This document shows, in pieces, positions 14,368 through 58,961 of a stretch of 61,188 bases of DNA. Location: positions 1 to 61,188 of the forward strand of contig WANW01000096.1 of assembly GCA_015521615.1 (NCBI GenBank), written 5' to 3'. The notes under the pieces were generated by a model. That model did no database searches. It worked only from the letters and a program-made list of their open reading frames with translations, and was not told the DNA's origin. Source of the stretch: Candidatus Hydrothermarchaeota archaeon. Its GTDB lineage: Archaea > Hydrothermarchaeota > Hydrothermarchaeia > Hydrothermarchaeales > BMS3B. The position numbers and the translations under genes were made by a program. Every line of letters begins with the position of its first letter. Position 1 is the stretch's first letter.

Positions 14368-14380
14368 ATAGGGGGAGAGG

Positions 14381-15163
14381 ATGACGAAGTTTGCTGTCAA
14401 GGTGTACTATGACGGCACCGCCTTTTATGGTTCGCAGCGCCAGCCGGAGAAGCGTACAGTAGAGGGGGAGCTTCTCCGCGCCCTGAGCGCCTTTGGTGAG
14501 GTGAGGAACTTCAAGAGTGCGGGGAGAACTGACCGCGGGGTGAGTGCGCTGGGCAACGTGTTTGCCTTCGACATGGAACGCAAACCCGAGCCGCGTGCAA
14601 TAAATGCGCGGCTGAGCAGGGATATAAGGGTGCTCGCAATAAGAGAAGTGCCCGCGGACTTTCACCCGCGCTACGACGCACTCCACAGAACCTACAGGTA
14701 CTTCCTCTACGATGAGGGCTTTGACCTTGGAGCAATAAAGCAGGCGTGCAGTATCCTAGAAGGTGAACACAGCTTCCACAACTTTACCCGCGCCAGGGAG
14801 AAAAACTACACGCGAAGGCTCCTTGAGGTCACCGCTGACAGGAAGGGTGAGGTTATTGTGCTAACCTTCAAGGGGGAGAGCTTTCTCTGGGAGATGGTGC
14901 GCAGGCTGACGAGCGCGATAGCAATGGTGGGGAAGGGTGAGCTCAGCGTTGAGGCACTTGAAGAGGCTTTACACCCTGAAGTGGAGCGGAAATTTTCAGC
15001 GGCACCGCCTGAGTTTCTTGTGCTCTGGCACGTGGCCTATGAGTTTGAGTTTGAGCATGAAGAGTACTCCACGGCACAGCTTGTGGCGCAGCTCAGGGAA
15101 AGGTTCTCGTCGCTGTATGCGCAGGCTGCGCTTGCAAAGGCGATGTTTGAAGAGCTGGACTAA
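14381..15163 (+). CDS. truA: tRNA pseudouridine(38-40) synthase
   Basis: The sequence shows YDGTAFYGSQRQ and the catalytic-Asp motif AGRTDRGVSALGNV. An SD-like GGGGGAGAGG lies upstream. Confidence 0.9.
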   Translation: MTKFAVKVYYDGTAFYGSQRQPEKRTVEGELLRALSAFGEVRNFKSAGRTDRGVSALGNVFAFDMERKPEPRAINARLSRDIRVLAIREVPADFHPRYDALHRTYRYFLYDEGFDLGAIKQACSILEGEHSFHNFTRAREKNYTRRLLEVTADRKGEVIVLTFKGESFLWEMVRRLTSAIAMVGKGELSVEALEEALHPEVERKFSAAPPEFLVLWHVAYEFEFEHEEYSTAQLVAQLRERFSSLYAQAALAKAMFEELD

Positions 15164-16425
15164 ATGCTGAACTTCTCCCTCAGTGCCGACCTGCGAAGCA
15201 CATGCCAGGTGTCACCGCGCAAAATCACCCTGAAGGCATGCTCTATGACCTTCCTGTAAAAATCACAGTAGTAGCTCTTTTTGTACATGCTGCCGTCGGT
15301 GGAGTATATCTCCGCAGGACATGGGGCACCGCAGATGTTTTTGAATAGGCAGATATTGCACTCTGCTATCCATTCAACTGTTCGGCTCATCACCTTTCGG
15401 AAGCCATCTGAGTCTGAGATTTCCTCAATAGTGCTATTGAATATACTCCCTCCGGTGAACTCCTGCATGCCTATAAACTCACCGCAGGGGTAGCACTCAC
15501 CATTTGCAGTAACTGAAAAGAATCTCCTTCCAGCGCCACATGGTGAGATGTCGCACATAAGCACCCTTGCACCTGGAGCAATGATGCCAAGCAGGAGGTT
15601 GGCGAAGTCTCCTATAACTATCCTTCTCCCCTGTTTAGTCAGCTCAATTGCAGTGTCCACAGCTTTAATAAAATCTTTGGCCATCTCCTGCGGTTCAGGT
15701 CGCAGGGCGAGAGAGCCTTTCTGGGTTCCTCTAACAGGATTCATCAGGCAAAGTGAAACCTCCCTCTCATGCAGGAACCTGACCATGTCAGCAAGCTGCC
15801 TCTGGTTGTGCTTCGTTATGGTGGTCACCACATTCAAGCCTCTGTAACGTGAGAGCCACTCAAGTGCCTCGATGACCTTGCTGAAGTGTCCCTGCCCGCG
15901 CAGTGCGTCGTTGGTTACTTCATCAGGCGAGTCGAGTGAGATGCCTATGTTCACCCTCTTTTCCTTTATAAACTCAGCATCCTCCTCGGCTAGCAGCATA
16001 CCATTCGTCTGAATCCCGAAGTGAAGCTCGTTGTGATAATCCTCAATTACCCTGAAGATATTCTCCCTGTTCATCAGAGGCTCACTTCCATGGAATACTA
16101 TTGAGCCCTTTATCCCCCTGCTTTCAAAAAATTCAATTGCCTTCTCAATGACGGCATTCAACTCAGCGTAGCTCATGTTTTTTCCGCGTGACTTTATATT
16201 CTGAGGCAGGTAGCAGTATGGGCATGAGGCGTTGCATTTGTCGGTGGGGTTTACATAAAGCAGAATTATATCTTTGCAGAACCTCAGGTTTTGCATCTCC
16301 TCAATCAGCTCTTTTCTCACGCTGAAATACAGCCCTTCCAGTTTCTTCTGATCCCCAATTCCCCAGAAATTTGTCTCTGGGTCAATCTTAAACTCCACCT
16401 CGTCGATTGTGAGAGTCTGAAGCAT
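15160..16425 (-). CDS. radical SAM / SPASM-domain protein (peptide-maturase-like)
   Basis: The CxxxCxxC motif is CNASCPYC. The C-terminal Cys-rich part reads CDISPCGAGRRFFSVTANGECYPCGEF...CNICLFKNICGAPCP. ATG 16425 is preceded by GGTGGTGAGG; the track start is TTG 16437. Confidence 0.8.
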   Translation of the reverse strand: MLQTLTIDEVEFKIDPETNFWGIGDQKKLEGLYFSVRKELIEEMQNLRFCKDIILLYVNPTDKCNASCPYCYLPQNIKSRGKNMSYAELNAVIEKAIEFFESRGIKGSIVFHGSEPLMNRENIFRVIEDYHNELHFGIQTNGMLLAEEDAEFIKEKRVNIGISLDSPDEVTNDALRGQGHFSKVIEALEWLSRYRGLNVVTTITKHNQRQLADMVRFLHEREVSLCLMNPVRGTQKGSLALRPEPQEMAKDFIKAVDTAIELTKQGRRIVIGDFANLLLGIIAPGARVLMCDISPCGAGRRFFSVTANGECYPCGEFIGMQEFTGGSIFNSTIEEISDSDGFRKVMSRTVEWIAECNICLFKNICGAPCPAEIYSTDGSMYKKSYYCDFYRKVIEHAFRVILRGDTWHVLRRSALREKFSI

Positions 16426-16448
16426 CCTCACCACCAAAAAAGAAAGAA

Positions 16449-16559
16449 TTAGAAGGGCGAATCTTCACTCTGCATCACATAGTGGGTGAGTCCAGCCCCT
16501 CTGTATTTACACTCCATTCTGTAACTCATTTCTACTTTATGTTCATTTTTGTTGTTCAT
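16449..16559 (-). CDS. unannotated small ORF (36 aa; 42 aa if started at ATG 16577), candidate precursor peptide
   Basis: Hand translation of the minus strand gives MNNKNEHKVEMSYRMECKYRGAGLTHYVMQSEDSPF* with TAA at 16449-16451. The ORF ends 23 nt (11 nt if the rSAM gene starts at TTG 16437) upstream of the radical SAM/SPASM start. A TATA-like TTTTATAA lies about 33 nt upstream. It is below the 60-aa track cutoff. Confidence 0.45.
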   Translation of the reverse strand: MNNKNEHKVEMSYRMECKYRGAGLTHYVMQSEDSPF

Positions 16560-37223: not shown

Positions 37224-40200
37224 ATGGCGATAAAAAAGATAAGAAAGCGGGACGGACGCCTTGAAGACTTCAACCCCGAGAAGATACGCAACGCAATATT
37301 AAAGGCCTTCATCGCCACAGGCGAGGGCAACGGCGAGGTTGCGGGCGACATAGCGAGGGAGGTGGTTGCCCGCGTTGAGGAGCGCTTCCCCAGGGCGATC
37401 CCTGGTGTGGAGGATGTGCAGGACATAGTGGAGGAGACGCTTATAAAGCGGGGCTACGCCAAGGTTGCGAAGGCGTACATACTCTACAGGAAGGAGCGCG
37501 AGCAGATTCGCGCCGCGAAGAGCTTCATCGGCGTGCGTGACGATTTAAAGCTGAGCGTCAACGCCACGCAGGTGCTGCAGAAGCGCTACCTGCTAAAGAA
37601 CGACAGGGGCGAGGTGATTGAAACCCCTGCGCAGATGTTCAGGCGTGTTGCGAGGGCGATAGCGAGGGTGGAGAAGCGCTACGGCGGAGACGTTTCCGGG
37701 GCCGAGAAGCGCTTCTACTCCGCCATGGTCAGGCTGGACTTCCTGCCCAACTCGCCCACGCTGATGAACGCAGGCACCCGCCTGGGGCAGCTCAGCGCGT
37801 GTTTCGTCCTCCCGGTGGAGGACTCGCTGGATAGCATCTTCGATGCGCTGAAGCACATGGCGCTGGTGCAGCAGAGCGGCGGGGGCACGGGCTTCAGCTT
37901 CTCAAAGCTGCGCCCGCGCGGCGACATAGTGCGCTCCACAAAGGGCGTCGCCTCTGGCCCGGTTTCCTTTATCCGCATCTTCGACGTTACCACAGATGTT
38001 ATAAAGCAGGGGGGAAAGCGCCGCGGGGCGAACATGGGCATTCTGCGCGTTGACCACCCGGACATAATAGAGTTTATCACAGCCAAGCAGCAGGAGGGCG
38101 TGCTTGAGAACTTCAACCTGAGCGTTGGCGTGACCGACGCCTTTATGCGAGCGGTGCGCAGGGATGAGGAGTACCCGCTGGTGAACCCGAGGAACGGCGA
38201 GGTGGTGCGCCACGTCAGGGCAAGAGACGTGTTCGACATGATTGTAACCGCCGCCTGGCGCACCGGCGATCCTGGGCTGGTTTTCCTGGACGAGGTGAAC
38301 CGCCACAACCCCACGCCGGAGCTGGGCGAGATAGAGAGCACAAACCCGTGCGTAACCGGCGACACGCTGGTTGCAACTTCACAAGGACTTGAGAGGATTT
38401 CAGAGATCGTCGGGAAGAGGCGGGAGGTGCTCGTTGACCCTCGCCTCAACGGCGGCAGAGCAGAGCTCAGGCATGCTCTGAGGATTTTTAAGACGGGGAT
38501 AAAGAGGGTTTACAGGCTGCGCACCCGCGCGGGCTATGAGCTCCGTGCCACGGCAGAGCACCCTGTTCTAACACCCAGAGGCTGGCGAAGGGTTGGCGAG
38601 CTCAGGAAGGGCGACAGGGTGCTGATCCAGAGCGCTGGTGTGTTTAACAGGAGCTACGAGCTTCCTTTTGATGTTGAGGAGCTCAACAACCTGACGAAGC
38701 GGAGGAGGCTGCGCCTGCCTTCTAAATGGTCCCGCGAGCTGGGGCAGGTGCTCGGCTGGCTCATCGGCGACGGCGCTCTAACAGAGGAGAAGGCGATATT
38801 CTACTTCGGGAAGGATGAGGCAGAGCTACTGCCCTACTTCGCCAGAATACTGAACCGCTGGAACGCGTGCGAAGTAAGACCGCAGGAGTACGGCGGCGTT
38901 AAGAGGCTGCAGTACCATGCGAGGGGGATGGTGGAGTTCTTCGCAAAGCTCGGGGTTAAGCGGGCGAAGACCATGGAGAAAGAGGTTCCCAAGGCGCTGT
39001 TCACGGCTCCAAGAGAGGCGGTTGCTGGCTTCCTTCAGGCGCTTTTCACAGCCGACGGTACCATAGGCACGGGAAAGAACCGCGGACAGGTGAGGCTGAC
39101 CACCGCCTCGGAGAAGCTCGCGAAGCAGGTGCAGCTCCTCCTGCTGAACTTTGGCATAAAGGCAAAGATGTACAAGCGGAGGTACAGCAGGTCAAAGGCT
39201 TTTGTTTACAGCACCGTGGGAGGAGAGCGAAGGCGGTATGAGAGCAGGGCTGAGCACTACTACGAGCTTGTGATCACCAGGCAGAGCCTGGGCAGGTTTG
39301 CCGGGGAGATAGGCTTCCTGCCCTGCAGGAAGCGAAGCGCCTTCATGGAGAGGATGCCAAACAGGCGTGGAGCCTTTTACCGGGATACCTTTGTGGACGA
39401 AGTTGAGGAGGTTGTGGAAGAGGGTGAGGAGGAGGTTTATGACCTGACAGAACCCTGCTACCACTCTTTCATAGCCAACGGGATAGTGGTGCACAACTGC
39501 GGCGAGGTGCCTCTTTTGCCATACGAGTCCTGCAACCTGGGCTCAATCAACCTCTCGCATTTTGTCAGGAAGGGCGAGGTCGACTGGGAGCGTCTTCGCG
39601 AGGCAGTCCGCCTGGGCGTTCACTTCCTGGACAACGTTATAGATGCGAACCGCTACCCCCTCAAAGCGATAGAGCGCATGACAAAAGGCAACCGCAAGAT
39701 TGGCTTGGGCGTGATGGGCTGGGCTGAGATGCTGATAATGCTGGGGCTGCGCTACGATACCAAAGAGGCGGTGAGCTTTGCGGAGAAGCTCATGGGCTTC
39801 ATCCAGCGCGAGGCAAAGCAGGCCTCGAGAGAGCTCGCGGAGCAGAGGGGCTCCTTCCCGAACATAGACAAGAGCATCTACGCGGGCGAAGCGATGCGCA
39901 ACGCCACGGTTACCACGATAGCCCCGACGGGCACGATAAGCATAATCGCGGGCACGAGTTCCGGAATAGAGCCGCTCTTCGCGATATCCTTCATACGCAA
40001 TGTGATGGAGGGCACAAAGCTGCTGGAGGTGAACCCCCTCTTCGAGCGCATCGCGAGGGAGAGGGGCTTCTACTCCACCTCGCTGATGATGAAGATAGCC
40101 AAGAGCGGCTCAATCCAGGATATCAAGGAGATACCCCGAGACGTGCGCGAGCTCTTTGTCACCGCCCTGGATATAGCGCCGGAGTGGCATGTGCGCATGC

Positions 40201-40463
40201 AGGCGGCCTTCCAGAAGCACGTGGACAATGCGGTGAGCAAGACCATAAACCTGCCCCACGACGCCAGCTTGGAGGACGTGCGAAGAGCGTTTATGCTCGC
40301 CTACGAGCTTAAATGCAAGGGGATTACGGTCTATCGCTACGGGAGCAAGCGGGAGCAGGTGCTCTACATCGGGCCAATCTTCAAGAGGGAGACGGGCGAG
40401 GAGCACATCAGCGCGGATGCGGAATACTCGGGAGGCTGCCCCACGAGAGAGTGCATAGTGTGA
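37224..40463 (+). CDS. nrdJ: adenosylcobalamin-dependent (class II) ribonucleotide reductase with an N-terminal ATP-cone, interrupted by one intein
   Basis: The ATP-cone is IRKRDGRLEDFNPEKIRNAILKA. Class II motifs are SPTLMNAG and TNP|CGE...ESCNLGSINL. A C-terminal Cys pair is present. The extein is about 696 aa and the intein 383 aa. Confidence 0.9.
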   Translation: MAIKKIRKRDGRLEDFNPEKIRNAILKAFIATGEGNGEVAGDIAREVVARVEERFPRAIPGVEDVQDIVEETLIKRGYAKVAKAYILYRKEREQIRAAKSFIGVRDDLKLSVNATQVLQKRYLLKNDRGEVIETPAQMFRRVARAIARVEKRYGGDVSGAEKRFYSAMVRLDFLPNSPTLMNAGTRLGQLSACFVLPVEDSLDSIFDALKHMALVQQSGGGTGFSFSKLRPRGDIVRSTKGVASGPVSFIRIFDVTTDVIKQGGKRRGANMGILRVDHPDIIEFITAKQQEGVLENFNLSVGVTDAFMRAVRRDEEYPLVNPRNGEVVRHVRARDVFDMIVTAAWRTGDPGLVFLDEVNRHNPTPELGEIESTNPCVTGDTLVATSQGLERISEIVGKRREVLVDPRLNGGRAELRHALRIFKTGIKRVYRLRTRAGYELRATAEHPVLTPRGWRRVGELRKGDRVLIQSAGVFNRSYELPFDVEELNNLTKRRRLRLPSKWSRELGQVLGWLIGDGALTEEKAIFYFGKDEAELLPYFARILNRWNACEVRPQEYGGVKRLQYHARGMVEFFAKLGVKRAKTMEKEVPKALFTAPREAVAGFLQALFTADGTIGTGKNRGQVRLTTASEKLAKQVQLLLLNFGIKAKMYKRRYSRSKAFVYSTVGGERRRYESRAEHYYELVITRQSLGRFAGEIGFLPCRKRSAFMERMPNRRGAFYRDTFVDEVEEVVEEGEEEVYDLTEPCYHSFIANGIVVHNCGEVPLLPYESCNLGSINLSHFVRKGEVDWERLREAVRLGVHFLDNVIDANRYPLKAIERMTKGNRKIGLGVMGWAEMLIMLGLRYDTKEAVSFAEKLMGFIQREAKQASRELAEQRGSFPNIDKSIYAGEAMRNATVTTIAPTGTISIIAGTSSGIEPLFAISFIRNVMEGTKLLEVNPLFERIARERGFYSTSLMMKIAKSGSIQDIKEIPRDVRELFVTALDIAPEWHVRMQAAFQKHVDNAVSKTINLPHDASLEDVRRAFMLAYELKCKGITVYRYGSKREQVLYIGPIFKRETGEEHISADAEYSGGCPTRECIV
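38349..39497 (+). mobile_element. intein (383 aa) with a LAGLIDADG homing-endonuclease domain, inserted in the NPCGE active-site motif
   Basis: It starts with CVTGDTLV (block A) and has TAEHPVL (block B). The two dodecapeptide motifs are LGWLIGDGAL and VAGFLQALFTADGTIG. Block G is GIVVHN, followed by the +1 Cys (CGEVPL). Confidence 0.9.
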
Positions 40464-41623: not shown

Positions 41624-41697
41624 TGGAGTGGGGGAGATTTGAACTCCCGACCACTCGATCTTCAGTCGAGCGCTCTCCCAGGCTGAGCTACCACTCC
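41624..41697 (-). tRNA. tRNA-Phe (anticodon GAA)
   Basis: The reverse complement folds as GGAGTGG-TA-GCTC-AGCCTGGGA-GAGC-G-CTCGA-CTGAAGA-TCGAG-TGGTC-GGGAG-TTCAAAT-CTCCC-CCACTCC-A. All stems are Watson-Crick. It is 74 nt, and no CCA is encoded. Confidence 0.92.
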
Positions 41698-41844: not shown

Positions 41845-43056
41845 ATGAAAAGCGGATTAATTCTATTAACGTGCCTGATATTCTTCATTCCACCTGCTTT
41901 TGCGGATAATGTAGATTTCTACATAATGAAAATCTCTCCAGAAGAAGTTGCTCCGGGTGAAACCACAACTCTGACCATAACAATTGCGAATCTGGGCATA
42001 GATTATGCTGCATATGTACATGCGGTGCTCGACCCTGAGTCAACCTCGCCTCTCTCAGTGCTCGGGGCAAAGAAGATATATGTAACGAAGTACGCTGCAG
42101 AGGGGCAGCCAACCAAGTACTTCGGGGTGATACTTCAGAATGAGAGATTTACTGTGAGATACCGGGTGCATGTGGATAAGGATACAGCATTTGGGACGTA
42201 TACGGTCCCCCTGAAGCTGGTCTGGCGGGATGAGTACAATAATGTGCAGAGCGAGACCCTTGAGTTCGGCCTGAAGGTGGCCGGTGACCCAGAGATTGTT
42301 ATTTCTGGGGTTAACAAAACCCCTGCAAGGATTTACCCGGATACAGAATTTACACTTGTAATCGCCTTTGAGAACATAGGCACAGCGAAGGCCGAAAATG
42401 TTAAAGTTGAGCTTTCATTGCCTCAGGGGATAACCGGTGAGAGGGTCGCATTTCTTGGGACACTGGAGAGGAACAGACAGGCGGCTGCAGCATTCTCCCT
42501 GAAGGCTGAAAAGGAGGCCGAGGCAGGGGCAAGGAAGATTGGGGTGAAGTTGAGCTATACCACAGAAGAGAAGGCACGTGAAGAGTTTGATAAAGAGGTG
42601 GAGATATTTATTTACGAGAAGGAGCCGGCGAAGCTTGAGGTTGCTGGCTTGGATACTTCTCCGGCAAAGCTCACACCAGGTAAAGCCTTCACCCTCTCAA
42701 TTCAGCTTGAGAACATAGGCAAGCAGGACGCAAAGGCGGTGAAGGTTGAGCTTTCCCTGCCAGAGACATTCTCAGGTGCAAGAACCTCTTACCTGGGCAC
42801 AATAAAACAGGACGATACCTCCACTGCGATTTTTGACCTGGAAGTTTTACCCCTCGCAGAGCCAAAGAGCTACAGTCTGCCTGTGAAGATCTACTACCTC
42901 GACGAGAAGGGCAGGCTCCACGAGGAGGAAAGGGAGATAGCACTAACCGTAACCAGACCCGAAAAGCGTATGCCGCTGAAACTGCTCGCAGGCATCGGGA
43001 TACTGCTGATTGCTGGTATTGTCTGGTGGCGCAGGCGGAAAAGCGCCCAGCTCTAG
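41845..43056 (+). CDS. secreted multi-domain surface protein (COG1361 / CARDB-like repeats) with a C-terminal TM anchor
   Basis: A signal peptide is present. Repeated modules read LTITIANLGIDYAAYVHAVL, LVIAFENIGTAKAENVKVELSLPQGITG and LSIQLENIGKQDAKAVKVELSLPETFSG. The C-terminus is LLAGIGILLIAGIVWWRRRK. Confidence 0.7.
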   Translation: MKSGLILLTCLIFFIPPAFADNVDFYIMKISPEEVAPGETTTLTITIANLGIDYAAYVHAVLDPESTSPLSVLGAKKIYVTKYAAEGQPTKYFGVILQNERFTVRYRVHVDKDTAFGTYTVPLKLVWRDEYNNVQSETLEFGLKVAGDPEIVISGVNKTPARIYPDTEFTLVIAFENIGTAKAENVKVELSLPQGITGERVAFLGTLERNRQAAAAFSLKAEKEAEAGARKIGVKLSYTTEEKAREEFDKEVEIFIYEKEPAKLEVAGLDTSPAKLTPGKAFTLSIQLENIGKQDAKAVKVELSLPETFSGARTSYLGTIKQDDTSTAIFDLEVLPLAEPKSYSLPVKIYYLDEKGRLHEEEREIALTVTRPEKRMPLKLLAGIGILLIAGIVWWRRRKSAQL

Positions 43057-43066
43057 GGGGCGTTAG

Positions 43067-43753
43067 ATGGTAATTAGGCTCGAGAATGTGGTTAAGATAT
43101 ACCGCCTGGGCAAGGTTGAGGTGCCCGCACTGAGAGGGGTAAACCTGGAAATACCCAAAGGTGAGTACGCCTCTATTATGGGCCCTTCGGGTTCTGGAAA
43201 GAGTACCCTGATGAATTTAATAGGAGCCCTGGACAGGCCAACCAGCGGGAAGGTCTACATTGATGGTGTGGATATAGCAAAGCTGAACGACGAGCGCCTT
43301 GCAATGCTCAGGAGGAAGAAGATTGGATTTGTATTCCAGCAGTTCAATCTTATAAACAAGCTTACGGCGCTGGAGAATGTGGCGCTGCCAATGTGGTTCG
43401 CCGGTGTTAGCAGGGCTGCGAGAATGCGCCGTGCCAAAGAACTGCTTGAGCTTGTTGGGCTTGGGGAAAGGCTGCACCACAAGCCGGCGGAGCTAAGCGG
43501 TGGTGAACGGCAGCGCGTGGCTATAGCGAGGGCGCTCGCCAATGACCCGGAGATAATTCTCGCTGATGAGCCCACCGGTAACCTGGACACCGCCTCAGGC
43601 ATGGTGGTTATTGAGCTCCTGGAGAAATTAAACAAACTCGGGAAAACCCTTGTTGTAGTGACCCATGACCCGGATTTTGGAAAGCGTGCGAGGATGAGGG
43701 TAAAGCTGAGAGACGGGATTGTACGGGAGATAGAGAGGGACGAAAATGCTTGA
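43067..43753 (+). CDS. ABC transporter ATP-binding protein (MacB/LolD family)
   Basis: Walker A is GPSGSGKST, the signature is LSGGERQRVAIARAL, and Walker B is ILADEPTGNLD. Confidence 0.9.
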   Translation: MVIRLENVVKIYRLGKVEVPALRGVNLEIPKGEYASIMGPSGSGKSTLMNLIGALDRPTSGKVYIDGVDIAKLNDERLAMLRRKKIGFVFQQFNLINKLTALENVALPMWFAGVSRAARMRRAKELLELVGLGERLHHKPAELSGGERQRVAIARALANDPEIILADEPTGNLDTASGMVVIELLEKLNKLGKTLVVVTHDPDFGKRARMRVKLRDGIVREIERDENA

Positions 43754-44933
43754 TTACATCCTATTTTCTGTTAAGAATCTCAGCCATCATAAAGTTCGGA
43801 GTTTTCTCACACTACTGGGGGTTATTATTGGAATAATGGCAGTTGTGTCCATGATCTCCATTGGCTCCGGGATGAAGGCTGCTCTAAAGGAGCAGCTGGA
43901 GCAGCTGGGCAGTGATAAGATTTTTATTATTCCAAGGCTGGCCTACGGTACGGCTGCGACTACCTTAACAGACGAGGATGCAGATGCAATTGAGCGCGTT
44001 GCGGGCGTTGCCTTTGTGTCGCCGCTCTACAGCGTTGCAGGCGATGTAGGCTTTCGCAATGAACGCAGAATTGTCAAGATATACGGGATTGACCCTGAGA
44101 AGGCAGAGGCCACTTTCGGCGGCGGCGCGAGTGGTTACCGCCTGCTGAAGGGGCGGTGGCTGCAGCGTGGAGACAGGTACAAGGTGGTTGTTGGTTATGG
44201 AGTTGCCAGTGATGTTTTTTCCAGGGACGTGAATGTGGGCAACACGCTTAAAATTCACGGCGTGGGATTTGAGGTGGTGGGTGTATTCAAGAAGACGGGC
44301 GACCGTGAGAAGGACTATACCATATACACCAACCTGGACACCATCCGGGATATCTTTGGCGCGGGCAATAAAGTTACACTGATAATAGCAAGGATAGATA
44401 AGGGTGCTGATATAGACGACGTGAGGCTGAGAATAGAGAATGAGCTTGAGAAGAGGAAAGGTTCCAAGGAGAACTTCTTTGTTATGACACAGAAGGAGAT
44501 CATTGAGCGCGTGGGTGAGGCATACCGTGTTGTGCAGGTCGTTTTTGGGGGCCTGGCTGCGGTTTCACTTATCGTTGGGGCAATAGGTATAGCAAATACC
44601 ATGATTATGAATGTCACAGAGCGTACCCGGGAAATCGGCATACTGAAGGCTACAGGGGCGAGTAATGCCCAGGTTATGAAGATTTTTCTGACGGATGCGG
44701 CATTTCTTGGCCTGGCTGGCGGGTGTATAGGTGTGGCCATGGGGTATCTCATCTCCCTGGCGATTAACACAGCAGCAGCACGCTATCTTGGCGAAGGGGT
44801 GTTAACCACAGCGGTGACACCTGAGCTGGTGCTTTTTGCACTGATCTTCTCCCTGGTGATAGGTGTGGTCGCCGGTCTGTATCCGGCATACCGTGCGCTC
44901 AGGCTTAATCCCGTGGAGGCGCTCCGGGCATGA
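43746..44933 (+). CDS. ABC transporter permease, FtsX/MacB type
   Basis: The layout is an N-terminal TM, a large extracytoplasmic domain and a C-terminal FtsX 3-TM bundle (TREIGILKATGAS). It overlaps the ATPase gene. Confidence 0.85.
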   Translation: MLDYILFSVKNLSHHKVRSFLTLLGVIIGIMAVVSMISIGSGMKAALKEQLEQLGSDKIFIIPRLAYGTAATTLTDEDADAIERVAGVAFVSPLYSVAGDVGFRNERRIVKIYGIDPEKAEATFGGGASGYRLLKGRWLQRGDRYKVVVGYGVASDVFSRDVNVGNTLKIHGVGFEVVGVFKKTGDREKDYTIYTNLDTIRDIFGAGNKVTLIIARIDKGADIDDVRLRIENELEKRKGSKENFFVMTQKEIIERVGEAYRVVQVVFGGLAAVSLIVGAIGIANTMIMNVTERTREIGILKATGASNAQVMKIFLTDAAFLGLAGGCIGVAMGYLISLAINTAAARYLGEGVLTTAVTPELVLFALIFSLVIGVVAGLYPAYRALRLNPVEALRA

Positions 44934-46117
44934 TTGAGGAGCTGAGCTATGCGATTAAGAACATGACCCAGGCAAAGCTGCGAACCTTCCTCACGGTGCT
45001 TGGTATAGTTATAGGCATTGCCATAATCGTGGCGATGGTGTCCATTGGTGAGGGTATGCGCACCAGCATAACCCAACAGCTGGATGCACTGGGTGGAGAT
45101 AAGATAATGATAACCCCGCCGCAGGCTTTTGCAGCCAGGGGTACGCCGATGGAGTTCAAGCCCTTCGACCAGGCAGACCTCCGTGCGATAAAAAGTCTGC
45201 CGAATGTCAAGGATGTGCTCCCCATCTTCTATCGCCCTGGAACAATAGAGTACATGGGTGAGAAGAAGGAGATCTATGTCACGGGTGTGGAGAGGAGAGG
45301 GGCGGAGTACTTCAGACAGTTCTATAGCATCCGCAAGGGCAGGTATTTTAACGACAATGAGTTGAAAAGTGTTAATCTGGGCTACCGTGTGGCCGAGAAG
45401 TTTTTCGACAAAAAGATAAGCGTTGGCGAGGTTGTGAAGATAAATCAGCGCCGCTTCAAGGTTGTGGGCGTCTTTGAGGAGATAGGCAATGCAGAGGATG
45501 ATTCCAGCGTATACATGCCCCTGAAGGCAGCACAGGACCTCTACGATGCGGGTGATGAAATAACAATGCTGTGGGTCATTGCCGAGAATGAGAATGCTGT
45601 GAAAACCCTGGCAAAGAAGATAGAGGACGTGCTGGAAAAGCGGCGCGGGGGTAAGGACTTTGAGGTTTTTACCACGGAGCAGCTTGCAGAGCAAATTGCC
45701 ACAGTGATAACAATAATAACCTTTGTACTTGGCGGAATAGCGGGCATCTCAATAATTGTGGGTGGGGTGATTATAATGAACACCATGCTTACGTCAGTGC
45801 TCGAGCGTACCCGTGAGATAGGGGTGATGAAGGCTATTGGCGCAACTGATGCCATGGTTCTGAGGATATTTCTTGTGGAGTCTGCACTCATAGGCGCCCT
45901 CGGAGGCGGCATTGGTCTGGTTCTGGGGGCGATTATCTCTAAGGCAATTGAATATGTGGGGCAGGTATACATAGGTTCGAGTTTCATAACAGTAATCGAC
46001 AGGAAGCTGGTGCTTGGAGCGCTTGGATTCTCCCTTCTGGTGGGAGTGCTGTCAGGTGTTTATCCGGCGTACAAGGCGGCGAAGCTTAATCCTATAGAGG
46101 CGCTTAGGTACGAGTAA
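44930..46117 (+). CDS. ABC transporter permease, FtsX/MacB type (second copy)
   Basis: The architecture is the same as the first permease (TREIGVMKAIGAT). An ATGA overlap links it to the preceding permease. Confidence 0.85.
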   Translation: MIEELSYAIKNMTQAKLRTFLTVLGIVIGIAIIVAMVSIGEGMRTSITQQLDALGGDKIMITPPQAFAARGTPMEFKPFDQADLRAIKSLPNVKDVLPIFYRPGTIEYMGEKKEIYVTGVERRGAEYFRQFYSIRKGRYFNDNELKSVNLGYRVAEKFFDKKISVGEVVKINQRRFKVVGVFEEIGNAEDDSSVYMPLKAAQDLYDAGDEITMLWVIAENENAVKTLAKKIEDVLEKRRGGKDFEVFTTEQLAEQIATVITIITFVLGGIAGISIIVGGVIIMNTMLTSVLERTREIGVMKAIGATDAMVLRIFLVESALIGALGGGIGLVLGAIISKAIEYVGQVYIGSSFITVIDRKLVLGALGFSLLVGVLSGVYPAYKAAKLNPIEALRYE

Positions 46118-54051: not shown

Positions 54052-55620
54052 ATGCAGACCTGGCGACTTCTCGATACAGGTAAGCGCAGTGCTGCCGAGA
54101 ATCTTGCCCTCGACGAGGCGCTGCTTCTTGCAAGGGCGAGGCATTCAACGCCCAACACGCTACGCTTCCTCCAGTTTTCGCCTCATGCCGCGCTGGTGGG
54201 CTTTCATCAGAGCGTTGAGCTTGAGATACGCGAGGAATTCTGCAGGCAGGCGGGTATAGACATAAACCGTCGTATCACCGGCGGGGGGGCACTGTACTTT
54301 GATGAGTCGCAGCTTGGGTGGGAGCTTATCGCACCTCGTGGCTACGAGGCCTTTCCAAAGCGGGTGGAGGAACTTTACGAGGTTATATGCCGCGCCGCTG
54401 CTCGTGGCCTGAGAAAGCTTGGTATAGAGGCGAGCTTTCGCCCCAAGAACGACATAGAGGTCAATGGGAGAAAAATCTCGGGTACAGGAGGGGCGCTGGA
54501 AGAGGATGTATTCCTCTTTCAGGGCACGCTGCTCATGGACTTCGACGTTGAAACCATGCTCAGGGCGCTGCGCATCCCCACGGAGAAGCTCAAGGACAAG
54601 GAGATAGAGTCGGTAAAGGAGCGTGTCACCTGCGTTAAGTGGGAGTTGGGCCACTTACCTGAGCTGGATGAGGTGAAGCAGGCGCTGATGCAGGGCTTTT
54701 CTGAGGAATTTAATCTGCGCTTTGAGGAAGGGGAGCTCCTTCCTGAGGAGAGGGACCTGTACAAAAAGCTCCTGCCAAAGTTCAAATCTCGCGCCTGGGT
54801 GTACAGCACGCGGCGCGCGCCGGAGCAGCGCACCACACTTCGAGCAGCGAAAAAGACGCCCGGCGGGCTCATTCGCGTTCAGCTTGTCGTAGACGCGAAG
54901 AATGAGCGCATCCATTTTGCCTTAATTACAGGAGATTTCTTCGCCTACCCCAAGAGGGCGATATTCGACCTTGAAGCCAGGCTCAAAGACGCGAGCGCGG
55001 CGCCGGAGGAGGTTGAGAGGGTGATAAGACGCTTCTTCTCAGAGCGGGAGGTGGAGATTCCTGGAGCGAGTGTTGATGATTTCGTTGAAGTTGTGCTTGC
55101 CGCACTGGCAAAGCTCAGACTTAAGAAATACGGCATCGGCATAGAAGAGGCGAACCGCGTATTCACAGTGCTCGGTGACTTTGAAGATGTGCGCGCACCT
55201 CGCGCCCTGCTTTTGCCCTACTGCGCCAAGGCAAAGGATTGCGACCTGCGCTACAAGAATGACTGTAGAAAGTGCGGGCGCTGCACTGTGGGCAGAGCCT
55301 ACGAGCTTGCGGAGGAGCTGGGCCTAGAGGCAATTACAATTGTGAATTACGAGCATCTGGAGGAGACGCTGCGCAGTCTGCGCGAGCGGGGCATCTCCTC
55401 GTTTATAGGTACCTGCTGTGAGAGCTTCTTCATAAAGCACCAGCGCGACTTTGAGCGTCTTGGTCTAAGGGGTGTGCTTGTGGATATAGACAACACCACC
55501 TGCTATGACCTTGGAAAAGTTAGAGAGGCGAAGAAGGGCAGGTTCAGGGAGGAGACAACACTCAAGCTGGAGCTTCTCGAGAAGGTGCTCAGGCTGAAGG
55601 TAGACAGGAGCAACTCATAA
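54052..55620 (+). CDS. lipoate-protein ligase-like protein: LplA catalytic domain + LplB-type accessory domain + C-terminal Cys-rich DUF116-like domain
   Basis: The sequence begins MQTWRLLDTG...LRFLQFSPHAALVGFHQ...RRITGGGALYFD...NDIEVNGRKISGTGGA, a BPL_LplA_LipB pattern. ITGDFFAYPKRAIFDLEARL is the LplA C-terminal domain. LLPYCAKAKDCDLRYKNDCRKCGRCTVG...GTCCESFF is DUF116-like (memory). Confidence 0.7.
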   Translation: MQTWRLLDTGKRSAAENLALDEALLLARARHSTPNTLRFLQFSPHAALVGFHQSVELEIREEFCRQAGIDINRRITGGGALYFDESQLGWELIAPRGYEAFPKRVEELYEVICRAAARGLRKLGIEASFRPKNDIEVNGRKISGTGGALEEDVFLFQGTLLMDFDVETMLRALRIPTEKLKDKEIESVKERVTCVKWELGHLPELDEVKQALMQGFSEEFNLRFEEGELLPEERDLYKKLLPKFKSRAWVYSTRRAPEQRTTLRAAKKTPGGLIRVQLVVDAKNERIHFALITGDFFAYPKRAIFDLEARLKDASAAPEEVERVIRRFFSEREVEIPGASVDDFVEVVLAALAKLRLKKYGIGIEEANRVFTVLGDFEDVRAPRALLLPYCAKAKDCDLRYKNDCRKCGRCTVGRAYELAEELGLEAITIVNYEHLEETLRSLRERGISSFIGTCCESFFIKHQRDFERLGLRGVLVDIDNTTCYDLGKVREAKKGRFREETTLKLELLEKVLRLKVDRSNS

Positions 55621-55679
55621 GCTACATAAAGAGTACCCGGGGGCAACATATTTATTTCCCATCTGCATCTCTTTAAGCT

Positions 55680-57419
55680 ATGACAGCAATGGAGGAAGAC
55701 CACCTGGAGTTCCAGCTGAAGCAGGTTAATCCTGAGGAGACGCTGGAGGAGCAGTTTGTTAAACAGAGACAGACCTATCTGTTCTACAAGTTAGCGTGGA
55801 TACAGGAGTTCTTTGACAGAAAGAAGCTCGCACAGGAGCTTGCCTTTCTTGTGATGATGATATATATCTACGACTTTATAGATCGCCTTGGCATGCGCTT
55901 TGCCGACCGAATTCTCAACTTTTTATCCTTTACCGGCTGGCCGCTGGAAAAGTTTCGCTCCCTTATGGGGCTCAACCTGGAGGCCAAGATAGCCATGGCG
56001 GTGGCGCTTGAGTATCCCGAGAAAACTCAGGAGGAGCAGGAGAAGATTGTGGAGCTGGTAACCACCGCCTACTCTTGGCTTGGCCTTGCAAGAGAGCAGG
56101 AGTGGGAGATAGCGCGTGTTGTGAAGCAGAAGCGCTGGCTTTACTCACTCCTCAACTCAGAGCCGGAGCAGAAACGCCGTGAGCTGATTGAGAGACTGCG
56201 CGAAGGCGACGGAAAGCGAGTAGAGCTCAACCTTGTGAACATCGGTATTGTTCCAACTGAGCTCTGCCCCAACAGGTGCCGCTTCTGTCTCGCAGCCTGG
56301 AAGACGAGCTGCGAGGAGAGAATAGGGCGGAGCATAAGCGAGGAGGAGTTCGAGGTTATAGCGGATGAGGTTATAAACTTCGCAGATGAGCGTGGGCTTA
56401 TTATTACAGTGACAGGGGGTGAGCCCTTCCTGGAGCTGGAGCGCGTGCTCTACCTGGTGAAGCATGCTCGCTCCCGCCTGGACATAACCACCAGCGCCTA
56501 CTGGGCACGTGATATTGGCAAAGCCAAGGAGATTCTTTCAAAGCTCAGTGACGCAGCGAAGGAGAACCACAATGAAAACTTCAAGTTTACACTGCAGGTT
56601 AGCCTGGACGCCTTCCACCAGGAGGTGTTCTTTGAGAAGGGTGAGTTTGTGCAGAATGTGCCCATAGAGTGCATAATAAATCTGCTGAAGCTGACGCAGG
56701 AGGAGTTTCCGGAGATTGAGGTAGTTCTCCTCACAAAGCTAACGTCCTACGAGGATCCCCTCGCACGGCTCATAAAGCTGCTGGAGAAGCAGGGGATGAA
56801 GGTCAGGCTTACGCGGAAGGTGACGCAGCCAGGTGTTACGGTGAACCTCTTGGACGAAAATCGCAATCTCGTGGCAAAGCCGGCGCTGCTCAAGGCTTAC
56901 CTGGAGTTTGAGGGGACGCCTGGAAAGCCGGTGCTTATCTTCTATACAGTGGTGGAGAGCATGGGCAAGGCTTCAGCACTCGACGCCTTTGAGTTTCCGG
57001 GCTTCAGAGAACAGGTGCAGGAGCTTCTCAGGGGTAAGAGTGAGATTAAGCTTCCGCTTATAGGCCTCGAGGTGAGTGATGATGGCAATGTTTATCCAGG
57101 GGCACATTCTCTCTATGCCTGGAGCGCTGGAAACCTCCTTGAAGAAGGGCTGGAAGATATATATGAGCGTCTGAGCTACGACCCTCTCATAGTCACCCTT
57201 GCAGAAGAACCCGCAAAGATCTTCGAGATAGCGCGGGAGGTTGAAGGCGAGCGCGTTGATGCGGTAGCTATAAAGGAATCCTCACCTTTAGCTGCGGTGT
57301 ATAAGATTCTGGAAGCTCCCTGGATGCGTCTGTACATTACGCGGCGCCTTCTCGGTGAGTCCCAGGAAAAGGCAAAGGAGGAGTACCAGAAATACAGAGA
57401 GGAGTATCGCCCTGAATAA
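55680..57419 (+). CDS. radical SAM protein with a ~190-aa N-terminal helical extension
   Basis: CPNRCRFC lies at residues 196-203 and TVTGGEPF is the SAM-binding GGE motif. There is no second Cys cluster. An ATATTTAT box lies about 30 nt upstream with no SD, which suggests a leaderless start (inference). Confidence 0.75.
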   Translation: MTAMEEDHLEFQLKQVNPEETLEEQFVKQRQTYLFYKLAWIQEFFDRKKLAQELAFLVMMIYIYDFIDRLGMRFADRILNFLSFTGWPLEKFRSLMGLNLEAKIAMAVALEYPEKTQEEQEKIVELVTTAYSWLGLAREQEWEIARVVKQKRWLYSLLNSEPEQKRRELIERLREGDGKRVELNLVNIGIVPTELCPNRCRFCLAAWKTSCEERIGRSISEEEFEVIADEVINFADERGLIITVTGGEPFLELERVLYLVKHARSRLDITTSAYWARDIGKAKEILSKLSDAAKENHNENFKFTLQVSLDAFHQEVFFEKGEFVQNVPIECIINLLKLTQEEFPEIEVVLLTKLTSYEDPLARLIKLLEKQGMKVRLTRKVTQPGVTVNLLDENRNLVAKPALLKAYLEFEGTPGKPVLIFYTVVESMGKASALDAFEFPGFREQVQELLRGKSEIKLPLIGLEVSDDGNVYPGAHSLYAWSAGNLLEEGLEDIYERLSYDPLIVTLAEEPAKIFEIAREVEGERVDAVAIKESSPLAAVYKILEAPWMRLYITRRLLGESQEKAKEEYQKYREEYRPE

Positions 57420-57485
57420 TAAAATTATTCTGTTTTGTATTACTATTTCCTAAACTTTGCCATTTCTATATGTAATGGCACAAAG

Positions 57486-57493
57486 TTATAAAT
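57486..57493 (+). promoter_or_regulatory. TATA-box-like element (TTATAAAT) upstream of the small ORFs / SPASM gene
   Basis: It lies about 38 nt upstream of ATG 57528. It is immediately followed by ATATCCTGCCGATTCAAA, a motif also present downstream of the TATA of the gene at 53091. Confidence 0.35.
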
Positions 57494-57527
57494 ATCCTGC
57501 CGATTCAAAAATAGTCAGGGTGATTAA

Positions 57528-57596
57528 ATGAAAATCGTGAAGAAGGAAAAGAAAGTTGCATATGCGACATGTAAGTGCCATAAGAGCTGCATGTAG
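57528..57596 (+). CDS. unannotated 22-aa Lys/Cys-rich ORF, candidate precursor peptide
   Basis: Hand translation gives MKIVKKEKKVAYATCKCHKSCM*, with 7 Lys and a C-x-C-x3-C tail. The SD GGTGA lies 4 nt before the ATG. Frame indexing was cross-checked against track ORF 57556. Confidence 0.55.
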   Translation: MKIVKKEKKVAYATCKCHKSCM

Positions 57597-57627
57597 CTCT
57601 TTTTCTTTTATTTTTGAGGTGATTCTA

Positions 57628-57768
57628 ATGGACCTAACCGAGGAGATTCGAGCGAGGGTGTGCAGACGTTGCGACTTTTACAAGGAGGGCGAGACCCTGG
57701 AGTGTGCCGCCTTCAAGACAGCGAAGCGCCTTGTTGAACAGGGGAAGGTCAGCCTGGATGAAATATAA
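57628..57768 (+). CDS. small 46-aa CxxC protein (accessory protein or second precursor)
   Basis: The sequence is MDLTEEIRARVCRRCDFYKEGETLECAAFKTAKRLVEQGKVSLDEI. The SD GAGGTGA lies 5 nt before the ATG. The track ORF 57556..57768 starts at a TTG that overlaps the 22-aa ORF. Confidence 0.6.
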   Translation: MDLTEEIRARVCRRCDFYKEGETLECAAFKTAKRLVEQGKVSLDEI

Positions 57769-57779
57769 TCTGAATCGCC

Positions 57780-58961
57780 ATGTATCCCAGACTTAAGAAC
57801 TGTGTGCTACGCGCTGGTGAGGGCTATTTTCTTTACAATTATGTTGAGGATGTGGTTTATGAGCTTGACCTTGAGGCGCTGGAGCTGCTGCGCTGCTTCA
57901 CAGGTAAAAACAGCCTTGAAGCTCTGGCATGCGAATTTGGAGAGGGGAAGGTAAGGGAGGTGGTGGAGTACCTCCTGGGCGAGGGTTGTCTCGTCGATGA
58001 GCATAACGAAGATGCGCCGCAGAGCTTTATTGTAGAGCACTTTACGCCGTCGCTGCGCTACCTTCAGCTTCACATCACAGAACGGTGCAACCTCGCGTGC
58101 AGGCACTGCTACCTGGGTGAGAAGTCATGCATAGACCTGCCCAGAGAACTCGCCTTTAAGGCGGTGGAGGAGTTCTCACGCTTCGGGTGGAAGCTTTTAA
58201 TCACCGGCGGAGAGCCCATGCTCTCTCCCTACTTCTGGGAGCTGGTGAGCTTCGCTTCTCAACTTGGTGTACGCTTGGTGGTGCTCACCAATGGTACGCT
58301 TATCAGCGAAGCCACCGCAAAGCGCCTCGCCGAGCATGTTCATGAGGTGCAAATTAGTTTAGATGGCATTAAGCACGGACATGAGGCGCTCCGCGGGGAG
58401 GGAAGCTTCGCTAAAACACTTCGCGGAATAGAGGCAGCCGCCAAATACATGAGGGTGAGTATTGCTACAATGATTCATCGTGAGAATTTAAAAGAGTTCC
58501 CGCAGCTTGAGAAGCTTATTAAAAGCTTGGGTGTAGAGGAGTGGAGCCTGGATGTGCCCTCCCCCAAGGGGAGCTTACTGGAGAACGCGGAGCTTCTCCC
58601 GCCCCTTGAAGAGGCTGCAAGGATATACTCGAAGTATGGCTTCTCCTCCGGTGTGCATGAGGGTAGCGCTGAATATGCTTGCGGCGCTCACCTCTGCTCA
58701 GTTAATGTAAAAGGCGAAGTGACAAAGTGCGGATTCTTTGAGCATGGGGTGGGCAATCTTGCAGAAATTTCACTTAAAGAAGGCTGGAAGAGGATAGTTG
58801 AGAGCTATCTGCCAAAGCTGAGCGAACTCGCTTGTGCAGATTGCAAATACCTCAGCGCCTGTAGAGGTGGGTGTAGATTCAGAGCACTAAGCGAGGGAGA
58901 CTTTCTGGGCAAAGATAGCTTTCTATGCCTGCTCTACTCAAAGGTTCACAATCTTCAGTGA
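57780..58961 (+). CDS. radical SAM / SPASM-like peptide maturase with an N-terminal PqqD-type (RRE-like) domain
   Basis: The N-terminal ~85 aa (YFLYNYVEDVVYELDLEALELLRCFTGKNSLEALACEFGEGKVREVVEYLLGEGCLVDE) reads like a PqqD/RiPP-recognition element. CNLACRHC is CxxxCxxC. The C-terminus is CGAHLCSVNVKGEVTKCGFF...CADCKYLSACRGGCRF. Confidence 0.8.
   Translation: MYPRLKNCVLRAGEGYFLYNYVEDVVYELDLEALELLRCFTGKNSLEALACEFGEGKVREVVEYLLGEGCLVDEHNEDAPQSFIVEHFTPSLRYLQLHITERCNLACRHCYLGEKSCIDLPRELAFKAVEEFSRFGWKLLITGGEPMLSPYFWELVSFASQLGVRLVVLTNGTLISEATAKRLAEHVHEVQISLDGIKHGHEALRGEGSFAKTLRGIEAAAKYMRVSIATMIHRENLKEFPQLEKLIKSLGVEEWSLDVPSPKGSLLENAELLPPLEEAARIYSKYGFSSGVHEGSAEYACGAHLCSVNVKGEVTKCGFFEHGVGNLAEISLKEGWKRIVESYLPKLSELACADCKYLSACRGGCRFRALSEGDFLGKDSFLCLLYSKVHNLQ

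Follow-up and report, generated by a model that had tools for sequence, protein, structure and literature searches.

Gene content of the locus

We analysed a stretch of 61,188 nucleotides (nt), hereafter the window, of contig WANW01000096.1 from a Candidatus Hydrothermarchaeota archaeon (assembly GCA_015521615.1). The locus under study is at 54.0-59.0 kb. It begins with the gene of a lipoate:protein ligase paralogue that ends in a Cys-rich DUF116 tail. Downstream, on the same strand, are genes for an N-extended radical S-adenosylmethionine (SAM) protein, a peptide of 22 amino acids (aa), a 46-aa protein and a radical SAM/SPASM protein (Table 1). These genes likely form two functionally separate sets placed side by side. 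One is a lipoate ligase with a putative Fe-S tail. The other is a cassette that resembles those of ribosomally synthesized and post-translationally modified peptides (RiPPs).

The main useful result links DUF116, at the level of the family, to lipoate assembly by LipS1/LipS2/LipT; this link appears to be undescribed. The analysis also yielded, as a lesser result, a small archaeal cassette for putative peptide modification that includes a rare radical SAM family. Other loci are given by L numbers; the window, L001, L002, L078 and L080 are of Pyrohabitans type.

Table 1. Features of the ligase and cassette locus. Positions are those of the window unless another locus is named.
Feature	Position	Strand	Basis
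Lipoate:protein ligase paralogue, LplA + LplB + Cys-rich DUF116 tail, 522 aa	54052-55620	+	Pfam, NCBIfam and PDB matches
LplA catalytic domain, residues 14-216, with NRR-TGGG and RK141ISGTGG motifs	54091-54699	+	PF21948, invariant columns, 1vqz/2ars alignment
LplB-type accessory domain, residues 262-346	54835-55089	+	PF10437, NF053749, 3r07_C
DUF116 domain, residues 376-486	55177-55509	+	PF01976, alignment of homologues, AlphaFold (AF2) model
TATA-like box ATATTTAT, 24 nt before the radical SAM ATG	55648-55655	+	Sequence; similar box in relatives
N-extended radical SAM protein, 579 aa: helical N-domain (~1-175), core C196/C200/C203, Cys-less C-terminal domain	55680-57419	+	Pfam Radical_SAM, AF2 model
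TATA-like box TTATAAATAT ahead of the peptide gene (position inferred)	57486-57495	+	Sequence; A/T-rich boxes at the same place in other lineages
GGTGAT Shine-Dalgarno (SD) of the peptide gene	57519-57524	+	3-5 nt ahead of the ATG here and in L002, L001, L064, L071 and L084
22-aa Cys-rich peptide MKIVKKEKKVAYATCKCHKSCM, presumed precursor	57528-57596	+	Seven variants; synonymous-only changes against L002
T-rich tract 3' of the peptide stop, possible archaeal terminator or attenuator	57599-57615	+	Kept in L002 and L001; function inferred
46-aa protein, C-x2-C ... C pattern	57628-57768	+	Kept in all cassette loci
Radical SAM/SPASM protein, 393 aa, CNLACRHC and C-terminal CADCKYLSACRGGC (CX2CX5CX3C)	57780-58961	+	Pfam Radical_SAM, E 5.8e-22
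Orthologues of the 579-aa protein in molybdenum (Mo) context	L066 8001-9734; L070, L072, L073 10001-117xx		Gene neighbourhood

Domains of the fused ligase

Three Pfam domains were found in the ligase. The catalytic domain LplA-B_cat (PF21948) has an E-value of 1.2e-48. The accessory domain Lip_prot_lig_C (PF10437) follows with 25.7 bits (cutoff 24; E 1.1e-5). Finally, DUF116 (PF01976) scores 49.8 bits (cutoff 25; E 3.3e-13) and covers profile positions 32-143 of 155. An earlier note, made from the DNA letters alone, had described the protein as a 522-aa fusion of LplA, an accessory LplB domain and a Cys-rich DUF116 tail. The Pfam search that it proposed agrees on all three domains. The LplB assignment is also shared by NF053749 and by the LplB chain of Thermoplasma acidophilum (3r07_C), which aligns to residues 268-348 (E 9e-7). 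The NCBIfam model NF053749 has a low E-value (5.5e-14), but its 52 bits are below the cutoff of 65. The start codon is supported by the homologues, which share the N-terminus MQTWRLLDTG.

The LplA structures 1vqz and 2ars align to the catalytic domain. K141 (RKISGTGG) and the residues N72-R73-R74/T76-G79 are invariant in 20/20 diverse homologues. Moreover, K141 pairs with the lysine of the KKIMG motif of T. acidophilum LplA (GEKKIMGAAGA). The similarity to the T. acidophilum proteins (2ars, 3r07) extends over residues 14-250 for LplA and 268-348 for LplB, with the catalytic lysine aligned. Unlike that bipartite enzyme, the window ligase is a single chain with a tail.

LplA and LplB domains convert octanoate or lipoate to acyl-AMP and transfer the acyl group to the lipoyl-lysine of an acceptor. 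The LplB accessory domain is needed to form the acyl-adenylate. LplA enzymes recognise lipoyl domains in their folded form rather than short peptides. By sequence, the window protein falls among the Lpl(AB)-type lipoate:protein ligases, and its activity is predicted. It would activate octanoate or lipoate as acyl-AMP, and the recipient would be the lipoyl-lysine of a GcvH-like or LbpA-like acceptor. All NCBIfam equivalog scores are below their cutoffs (TIGR00545, 169.7 against 280; NF053751, 133 against 550; NF053750, 130 against 480). As far as sequence comparison can assign it, the ligase is a distinct Lpl(AB)-type subfamily without an NCBIfam model of its own.

Neighbours of the fused ligase in other genomes

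Over 3,500 of the candidate proteins that were scored matched the ligase, and the top 120 are full-length proteins with 54-92% identity. Homologues of the fused ligase are present in Thermoplasmata, Desulfobacterota, Chloroflexota, Bacillota, Nitrospirota and Altiarchaeales. The fused family is tight, with 50-65% identity across Archaea and Bacteria.

We surveyed the neighbourhoods of 63 ligase loci from GTDB species genomes and clustered their open reading frames (ORFs). The LipS1 and LipT families were bridged in the clustering by the natural fusion of L039, and they were split before counting. LipS1, LipS2 or both lie within 6 kb of the full-length fused ligase in 44 of 54 loci. Where at least 4 kb of downstream sequence was present (n = 39), LipS2 was found in 34 loci, LipT in 31 and LipS1 in 30. 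Clusters c19 and c33 were rejected as real neighbour genes; they are antisense ORFs of high-GC genomes.

The LipS1 neighbours match NCBIfam NF053742 with 231-238 bits (cutoff 230). Those of LipS2 reach 243 bits with NF053743, under the cutoff of 270, hence the term LipS2-like. The LipT-like neighbours belong to the geranylgeranyl-reductase family TIGR02032 (195 bits). GcvH-like and HdrB-like genes also occur beside the fused ligase, the former with scores below the NCBIfam GcvH cutoffs and the latter below that of TIGR03288. Two more neighbour clusters are HdrC-like and HdrA-like by sequence appearance alone.

In Bacteria, the genes are usually arranged as ligase-DUF116, LipT, LipS2 and LipS1, with an overlap between the ligase stop codon and LipT. 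In Archaea, they usually run short ligase, GcvH-like, LipS2 and ligase-DUF116, and Hdr-like genes often come next.

Judged by family membership, the neighbours of the fused ligase are the gene set of the sLpl(AB)-LipS1/LipS2-LipT pathway (PMC10332631). LipS2 sulfurates C8 and then LipS1 sulfurates C6; each uses an auxiliary [4Fe-4S] cluster (PMC9585515). Like the sLpl(AB)/Lpl(AB) enzymes of the LipS1/LipS2(/LipT) pathway (PMC10332631, PMC9585515), the window ligase has LplA and LplB in one chain. In most genomes, the gene of its family likewise has lipS1, lipS2 and lipT nearby, in some cases along with a GcvH-/LbpA-like acceptor and Hdr-like genes. However, the extra ~150-aa Cys-rich DUF116 domain of the window ligase goes unmentioned in the work on sLpl(AB) (PMC10332631). 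The window gene is also detached from lipS1 and lipS2. Another difference is that the archaeal clusters of the fused ligase hold a second, short ligase, only 34% identical to the fused one. The gene of this ligase family thus stands first in, or within, a lipT-lipS2-lipS1 cluster in most genomes, sometimes with a gcvH-like gene, and is detached in Pyrohabitans.

Some of these loci present further features. In the Thermoplasmata loci L005, L006, L010 and L047, an HdrB-like gene (NCBIfam) with HdrC- and HdrA-looking neighbours is directly 3' of the fused ligase. These Hdr-like genes recall the sHdr-LbpA sulfur-oxidation setting of sLpl(AB). The L039 fusion (2560-4728, + strand) is a 722-aa protein with a LipT-like N-terminus of the geranylgeranyl-reductase family and a LipS1-like radical SAM C-terminus.

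The DUF116 tail

DUF116 (COG1852) is a long-standing orphan domain, common in anaerobes. In 20 diverse homologues of the ligase, eight tail cysteines are invariant (C391, C397, C405, C408, C411, C455, C456 and C484). The AF2 model of residues 350-522 has a predicted local distance difference test score (pLDDT) of 86.8 and alternates strands and helices (alpha/beta). Foldseek gave no PDB relative of this model at E<=0.001. Type II dehydroquinase, Mog and designed Rossmann folds came closest, with template modelling (TM) scores of ~0.45 or less. The model belongs to the alpha/beta class, yet no homologue was identified. The model suggests a flavodoxin/Rossmann-like alpha/beta fold, which agrees with the flavodoxin-like prediction made earlier for stand-alone DUF116 proteins.

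A comparative analysis assigned to these stand-alone proteins a probable metal-binding role in electron transfer and predicted their flavodoxin-like fold (Makarova et al. 2015, PMC5898192). The window tail resembles them (DUF116/arCOG02078/COG1852) in the PF01976 match, in the predicted fold and in the conserved cysteines, including a CxxCxxC. The stand-alone proteins have two N-terminal transmembrane helices and lie near genes of sulfite/nitrite reductase or oxyanion-translocating ATPase (PMC5898192). The helices typical of arCOG02078 are not in the ligase, whose N-terminus is the soluble LplA-LplB module.

A phmmer scan with only the tail over 1.84 billion representative proteins gave just 196 representative clusters. 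The tail is its own DUF116 subfamily. All 86 tail matches of at least 450 aa contain an LplA domain. Two proteins are ligase-DUF116-LipT fusions: P0323 (825 aa; LipT hidden Markov model (HMM), 355 bits over residues 460-810) and P0421, a 198-aa fragment of the same kind. Other arrangements were also seen. P0406 (1117 aa) has two LplA-like modules, DUF116 and then an additional C-terminal domain of ~250 aa that matches no known family. P0410 (670 aa) has one LplA-like region, DUF116 and the same additional domain.

We infer from these sequences that the DUF116 tail binds one or more Fe-S clusters and serves the sulfur insertion by LipS1/LipS2, because it is confined to ligases among its matches of at least 450 aa, occurs in fusions with LipT and has a precedent in the LplA-LipA fusion. 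In that fusion (NF053790), the ligase is likewise joined at its C-terminus to an Fe-S-related sulfur-insertion module, if the role proposed here for the tail is right, and the ligase part matches with E 1e-34. However, the window module is DUF116 and not a radical SAM lipoyl synthase, and only residues 46-348 match. The most likely role of the tail would be to pass electrons on from the flavoprotein LipT to the clusters of the radical SAM enzymes. Alternatively, it could re-supply the sacrificial auxiliary clusters of LipS1/LipS2. In its most specific form, the proposal is a tentative one: the tail, tethered to the ligase, would be an Fe-S 'doxin' module dedicated to LipS1 and LipS2, and it would deliver LipT electrons or replacement cluster to both while they act on the freshly octanoylated acceptor.

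It is rather doubtful that the tail is a structural or regulatory domain, binding zinc or sensing redox state, with no electron or cluster supply to LipS1/LipS2. The eight invariant cysteines would also fit zinc sites or disulfides, and the tail has no structural match to a ferredoxin or flavodoxin of known function. Besides, no such tail is needed for the proteobacterial sLpl(AB)-LipS1/S2-LipT clusters to work (PMC10332631). Nevertheless, LipT is directly 3' of the ligase in most bacterial loci, with overlapping stop and start, and ligase-DUF116-LipT fusions exist in nature. The electron-transfer role inferred before for stand-alone DUF116 proteins (PMC5898192) and the NF053790 precedent of a ligase fused to an Fe-S enzyme also argue for the Fe-S module.

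The earlier note had suggested that the fusion gives DUF116 a functional context. The lipS1, lipS2 and lipT neighbours in most genomes, together with the ligase-DUF116-LipT fusions, bear this out. A large DUF116 subfamily exists solely as the C-terminus of lipoate ligases, which offers a concrete role to test. To our knowledge, neither a physiological reductant nor a repair system for the auxiliary clusters of LipS1/LipS2 is known. The link between DUF116 and the ligase points to a missing component of the LipS1/LipS2 pathway. If the 'doxin' proposal is true, it would be the first function for the DUF116 family, and it would answer what reduces or repairs LipS1 and LipS2. The tail goes unmentioned in the pathway survey of Tanabe et al. 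2023 (PMC10332631). In the literature searched, we found no link of DUF116 to lipoate and no later paper connecting LipS1 with a ligase Fe-S domain.

Lipoate assembly genes in Pyrohabitans

Among the loci with long flanks, only L001 and L002, close relatives of the window, lack all the LipS1/LipS2/LipT partners. LipS1, LipS2 and GcvH are also absent from the window in tblastn searches with cluster representatives and in searches of its six-frame translation with HMMs built from the loci (E<=1). A lipoyl-domain probe, an approximate E. coli AceF sequence and therefore a weak test, had no match in the window. A match of the LipT HMM at 2964-4679 was rejected as a weak hit to a generic flavin adenine dinucleotide protein.

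A Pyrohabitans LipS1 was found by searching with the LipS1 of a related archaeon. It is located on contig L074 of assembly GCA_054014795.1, where the order is LipS1, ligase (334 aa), GCV_H (148 aa, at 11969-12415, with the lipoyl-lysine motif FESAKF) and LipS2-like. The same assembly contains L078, with ligase-DUF116, the 579-aa radical SAM protein, a 46-aa ORF and the SPASM gene in this order. The L078 ligase is 88% identical to that of the window; this metagenome-assembled genome (MAG) is congeneric and not the window's own genome. The earlier note had seen no GcvH/E2-type lipoyl acceptor in the window and had asked whether the genome encodes one. The empty tblastn and HMM searches of the window agree with the first point, and the congeneric MAG encodes a GcvH-like protein. 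Judging from these sequences, Pyrohabitans has a complete lipoate assembly operon with its acceptor. The fused ligase is, on the same basis, a second and detached paralogue.

The peptide cassette

The genes of the peptide, the 46-aa protein and the SPASM enzyme are kept together in six lineages. In five cassette lineages, the N-extended radical SAM gene is directly 5' of the peptide gene. The cassette turned up only in Hydrothermarchaeota in these searches.

Seven variants of the peptide were seen, all of 22 aa. They are MKIVKKEKKVAYATCKCHKSCM (window), MKIVKKEKKTAYATCKCHKSCM (L078), MRIVKKEKKKGYATCKCHRSCM (L001), MKIVKREKRRSYATCKCHRSCM (L081), MMVKKLEKKKVYATCKCGKSCM (L064), MKISKINKKVLYSCAQCHKGCM (L071 and L082) and MKIRKIKKEIRYGACDCKMTCM (L084). 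The lysines K5 and K8 are invariant. Compared with L002, the window gene has six synonymous and zero nonsynonymous codon differences. The peptide gene appears to be real and separately expressed, because it shows only synonymous changes, a GGTGAT SD in all lineages examined and, in Pyrohabitans, a T-rich tract. It has an SD, a T-rich tract and a putative promoter of its own. At L083, a start-less remnant was found (...SCSQCHKK and a stop); it could come from an assembly error or from gene decay.

The 46-aa protein (MDLTEEIRARVCRRCDFYKEGETLECAAFK...) is 55-93% identical across all cassette loci. Its ORF is always between the peptide and SPASM genes and, with the exception of L084, directly 5' of the SPASM gene. 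Neither Pfam (to E<=10) nor NCBIfam matches the protein.

Many NCBIfam models of SPASM maturases match the 393-aa protein, all below cutoff. Its CX2CX5CX3C motif (CADCKYLSACRGGC) is invariant among relatives. A weak phmmer alignment to CteB, beginning at residue 25, is the sole hint of a RiPP recognition element (RRE). The enzyme resembles the SPASM maturases of RiPPs of the sactipeptide/ranthipeptide type (CteB, PapB, StsB) in its radical SAM domain, in the CX2CX5CX3C motif and in the tiny Cys-rich peptide gene just 5'. Unlike them, it falls under all family cutoffs, and Pfam detects no RRE. In addition, the 22-aa precursor is unusually short and a 46-aa Cys protein of unassigned role is always present. 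We propose that the SPASM enzyme would modify the peptide, for example with Cys-derived cross-links.

The N-extended radical SAM protein

The 579-aa family is rare, with 46 matches among 5.8 billion proteins. Of these relatives, 43 align over at least 93% of the query, with 41-100% identity. The three cysteines C196, C200 and C203 (CPNRCRFC) are the sole invariant ones among 34 homologues. The N-terminal ~175 residues are conserved throughout the family and have no Pfam match at E<=10. In the AF2 model (pLDDT 93.8), nine helices at the N-terminus precede the radical SAM core, and a C-terminal domain follows it. The C-terminal part gives a faint, Cys-less SPASM-like Pfam match (E<=10).

In the PDB, the model is closest to the RiPP epimerase EpeE (E 1e-8; target-normalised TM 0.72-0.76); CteB, anSME and ChlB come next. 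The protein shares with EpeE/YydG (PDB 8ai1-8ai6) the fold and the adjoining small peptide gene. However, it is only 15-16% identical and has the additional ~175-residue helical N-domain. It also differs in having no conserved Cys beyond the triad, which implies no auxiliary cluster and no Cys hydrogen donor. The EpeE/YydG model TIGR04078 matches weakly (22.7 bits, cutoff 300).

The ligase stops at 55620 and the radical SAM ATG is at 55680, which leaves a gap of 59 nt. No GGTGAT-type SD was found ahead of this ATG. A TATA-like box is present ~24 nt before it in five lineages (window, L001, L002, L064 and L071). The gene 5' of it varies: it is the ligase in the window, an Asn synthase in L064 and ThiDN in L071. 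The 579-aa gene is probably on a separate, leaderless transcript, because the box is kept whatever gene is upstream. The earlier note had already placed this gene 59 nt downstream of the ligase, with CPNRCRFC at 196-203, a helical N-extension, no auxiliary-cluster Cys motif and an upstream box without SD. All these features stand; the N-extension corresponds to ~175 conserved residues and nine modelled helices, and the box is ATATTTAT, 24 nt before the ATG.

In most lineages, the EpeE-like enzyme may also modify the peptide, being expressed from its own TATA box, probably as a leaderless mRNA. Its assignment to the 22-aa peptide is nevertheless uncertain, because it is found without the peptide in four genomes and is absent from L084.

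Two probably separate gene sets side by side

The cassette is beside the ligase only in Pyrohabitans, where the fused ligase is directly 5' of it on the same strand. Of the 63 ligase loci, only L001 and L002 have cassette genes beside the ligase, and 0/61 loci outside the genus carry any cassette gene (tblastn). In L064, the fused ligase is 7.5 kb 3' of the cassette, on the opposite strand, behind MacB/FtsX-NosL ATP-binding cassette (ABC) genes. In L083, it is 3.8 kb 3' of the cassette, also on the opposite strand, past a thermosome gene and two genes, one of them ABC-like. L071 has no fused ligase within 10 kb upstream or 4 kb downstream of the cassette, and L084 has none in its 10.3-kb cassette locus. 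In L004, which comes from the same metagenome as L071 (GC 37% against 38%), the fused ligase is beside LipS1, the short ligase, GcvH-like and LipS2 genes. In the window and seven of the fetched loci, a thermosome gene is directly 3' of the cassette. The simplest reading of the residual proximity between ligase and cassette is an inherited regional gene order, not a shared pathway, because the thermosome gene is at least as faithful a neighbour of the cassette as the ligase.

We therefore favour, as likely, two separate gene sets, because the cassette is confined to L001/L002 of the 63 loci, the window has no LipS or GcvH and a conserved TATA-like box stands between the sets. The cassette (55680-58961) would be an independent, RiPP-like peptide modification restricted to Hydrothermarchaeota. 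Adjacency within a single genus is misleading here, which calls for caution in annotation.

Several points weigh against this interpretation. On the side of the ligase, lipT is beside neither Pyrohabitans ligase, the tail has no PDB relative, and its Fe-S binding and its role in sulfur insertion are predictions for every family member. On the side of the cassette, Pfam detects no RRE/PqqD at E<=10 in residues 1-95 of the SPASM enzyme. At L083, the stretch from the radical SAM gene to the 46-aa ORF (1860-1990) contains no intact peptide ORF. The 579-aa gene is missing from the cassette locus L084. Moreover, its full-length orthologues in L066, L070, L072 and L073 (41-48% identity) lie between mobA-moeA and a moeA-PBP fusion. 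Finally, the ligases of L064 and L083 are 3.8-7.5 kb from the cassette, so some functional link would be conceivable.

The orthologues beside mobA-moeA hint at a role in the maturation of Mo or tungsten (W) enzymes. The loci L066, L070, L072 and L073 have neither the peptide nor the SPASM gene. A molybdopterin oxidoreductase operon adjoins the orthologue in L070, L072 and L073; in L066, the gene of an AFOR-type tungsten enzyme is found instead. The N-extended protein could accordingly act on a Mo/W enzyme or cofactor, with its place beside the peptide being lineage-specific. Its own promoter and the L084 cassette that does without it would fit such a role. However, the gene is directly 5' of the peptide gene in five cassette lineages, the solved structures most similar to its product are a RiPP epimerase and then other radical SAM enzymes that modify peptides, and no Mo-cofactor genes were found near the 579-aa gene in the window. 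We regard this role as rather unlikely.

The L066 locus, from a Hydrothermarchaeota genome, presents another feature. The dimethylamine methyltransferase (Dimeth_Pyl) at 6599-7987 is split in two adjoining ORFs of 351 and 100 aa, beside a corrinoid protein. This is the pattern expected from an in-frame UAG pyrrolysine codon.

The earlier note had offered two readings that unite the locus. In one of them, the 54.0-59.0 kb region is a single pathway in which the ligase acylates a lysine of the 22-mer and both radical SAM enzymes modify the acyl-peptide. The direct adjacency on one strand in the window, L001, L002, L078 and L080, the distance of less than 8 kb between ligase and cassette in L064 and L083, and the two invariant lysines speak for it. 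Nevertheless, we consider this pathway very improbable. The note had made the co-conservation of the ligase and the radical SAM genes a test of both readings, and outside the genus they do not occur together in any of the 61 loci. The presence of bacterial ligases with 50-65% identity in lipS1/lipS2/lipT clusters implies that the function is conserved. L071 and L084 have the cassette but no ligase near it, and the ligase of L064 and L083 is on the other strand behind ABC-transporter genes, with the thermosome gene also in between in L083. The thermosome gene is the more consistent cassette neighbour, which indicates inherited order, and a TATA box separates the ligase from the radical SAM gene. 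Furthermore, LplA enzymes take a folded lipoyl domain, and the genus has a GcvH-like acceptor.

The other reading, in which both radical SAM neighbours of the ligase are its partners in sulfur insertion, as divergent enzymes of the LipS1/LipS2 type, draws on the adjacency in Pyrohabitans and on the true partnership of the ligase family with LipS1/LipS2 in other genomes, but we give it almost no credence: NF053742 (LipS1) and NF053743 (LipS2) are not among the NCBIfam matches of either protein, the LipS1/LipS2 HMMs built from the loci find nothing in the window at E<=1, the 579-aa protein conserves only the radical SAM Cys triad and would have no auxiliary sulfur-donor cluster, the second protein is a SPASM enzyme, and genuine LipS1 and LipS2 are elsewhere in the same congeneric MAG (GCA_054014795.1). 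At the level of sequence families, membership of both proteins in LipS1/LipS2 is refuted.

Other features of the window

ABC-transporter genes of similar type occur in two of the loci. In L064, the cassette is followed (11248-16499) by genes of MacB/FtsX-type ABC transporters and of a NosL-like copper chaperone. In the window, a CARDB protein, an ABC ATPase and two MacB/FtsX permeases, similar to the L064 genes, lie at 41845-46117, ~8 kb 5' of the ligase.

Rfam matched nothing in the locus. Its sole matches in the whole window are two tRNA genes, at 2832-2906 (- strand) and 41624-41697 (- strand). The gene at 37224-40463 (+ strand) encodes the large subunit of ribonucleotide reductase (1079 aa), with an intein that includes a LAGLIDADG homing-endonuclease domain. 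The Pfam matches Intein_splicing and LAGLIDADG_3 fall within the barrel domain of this reductase.

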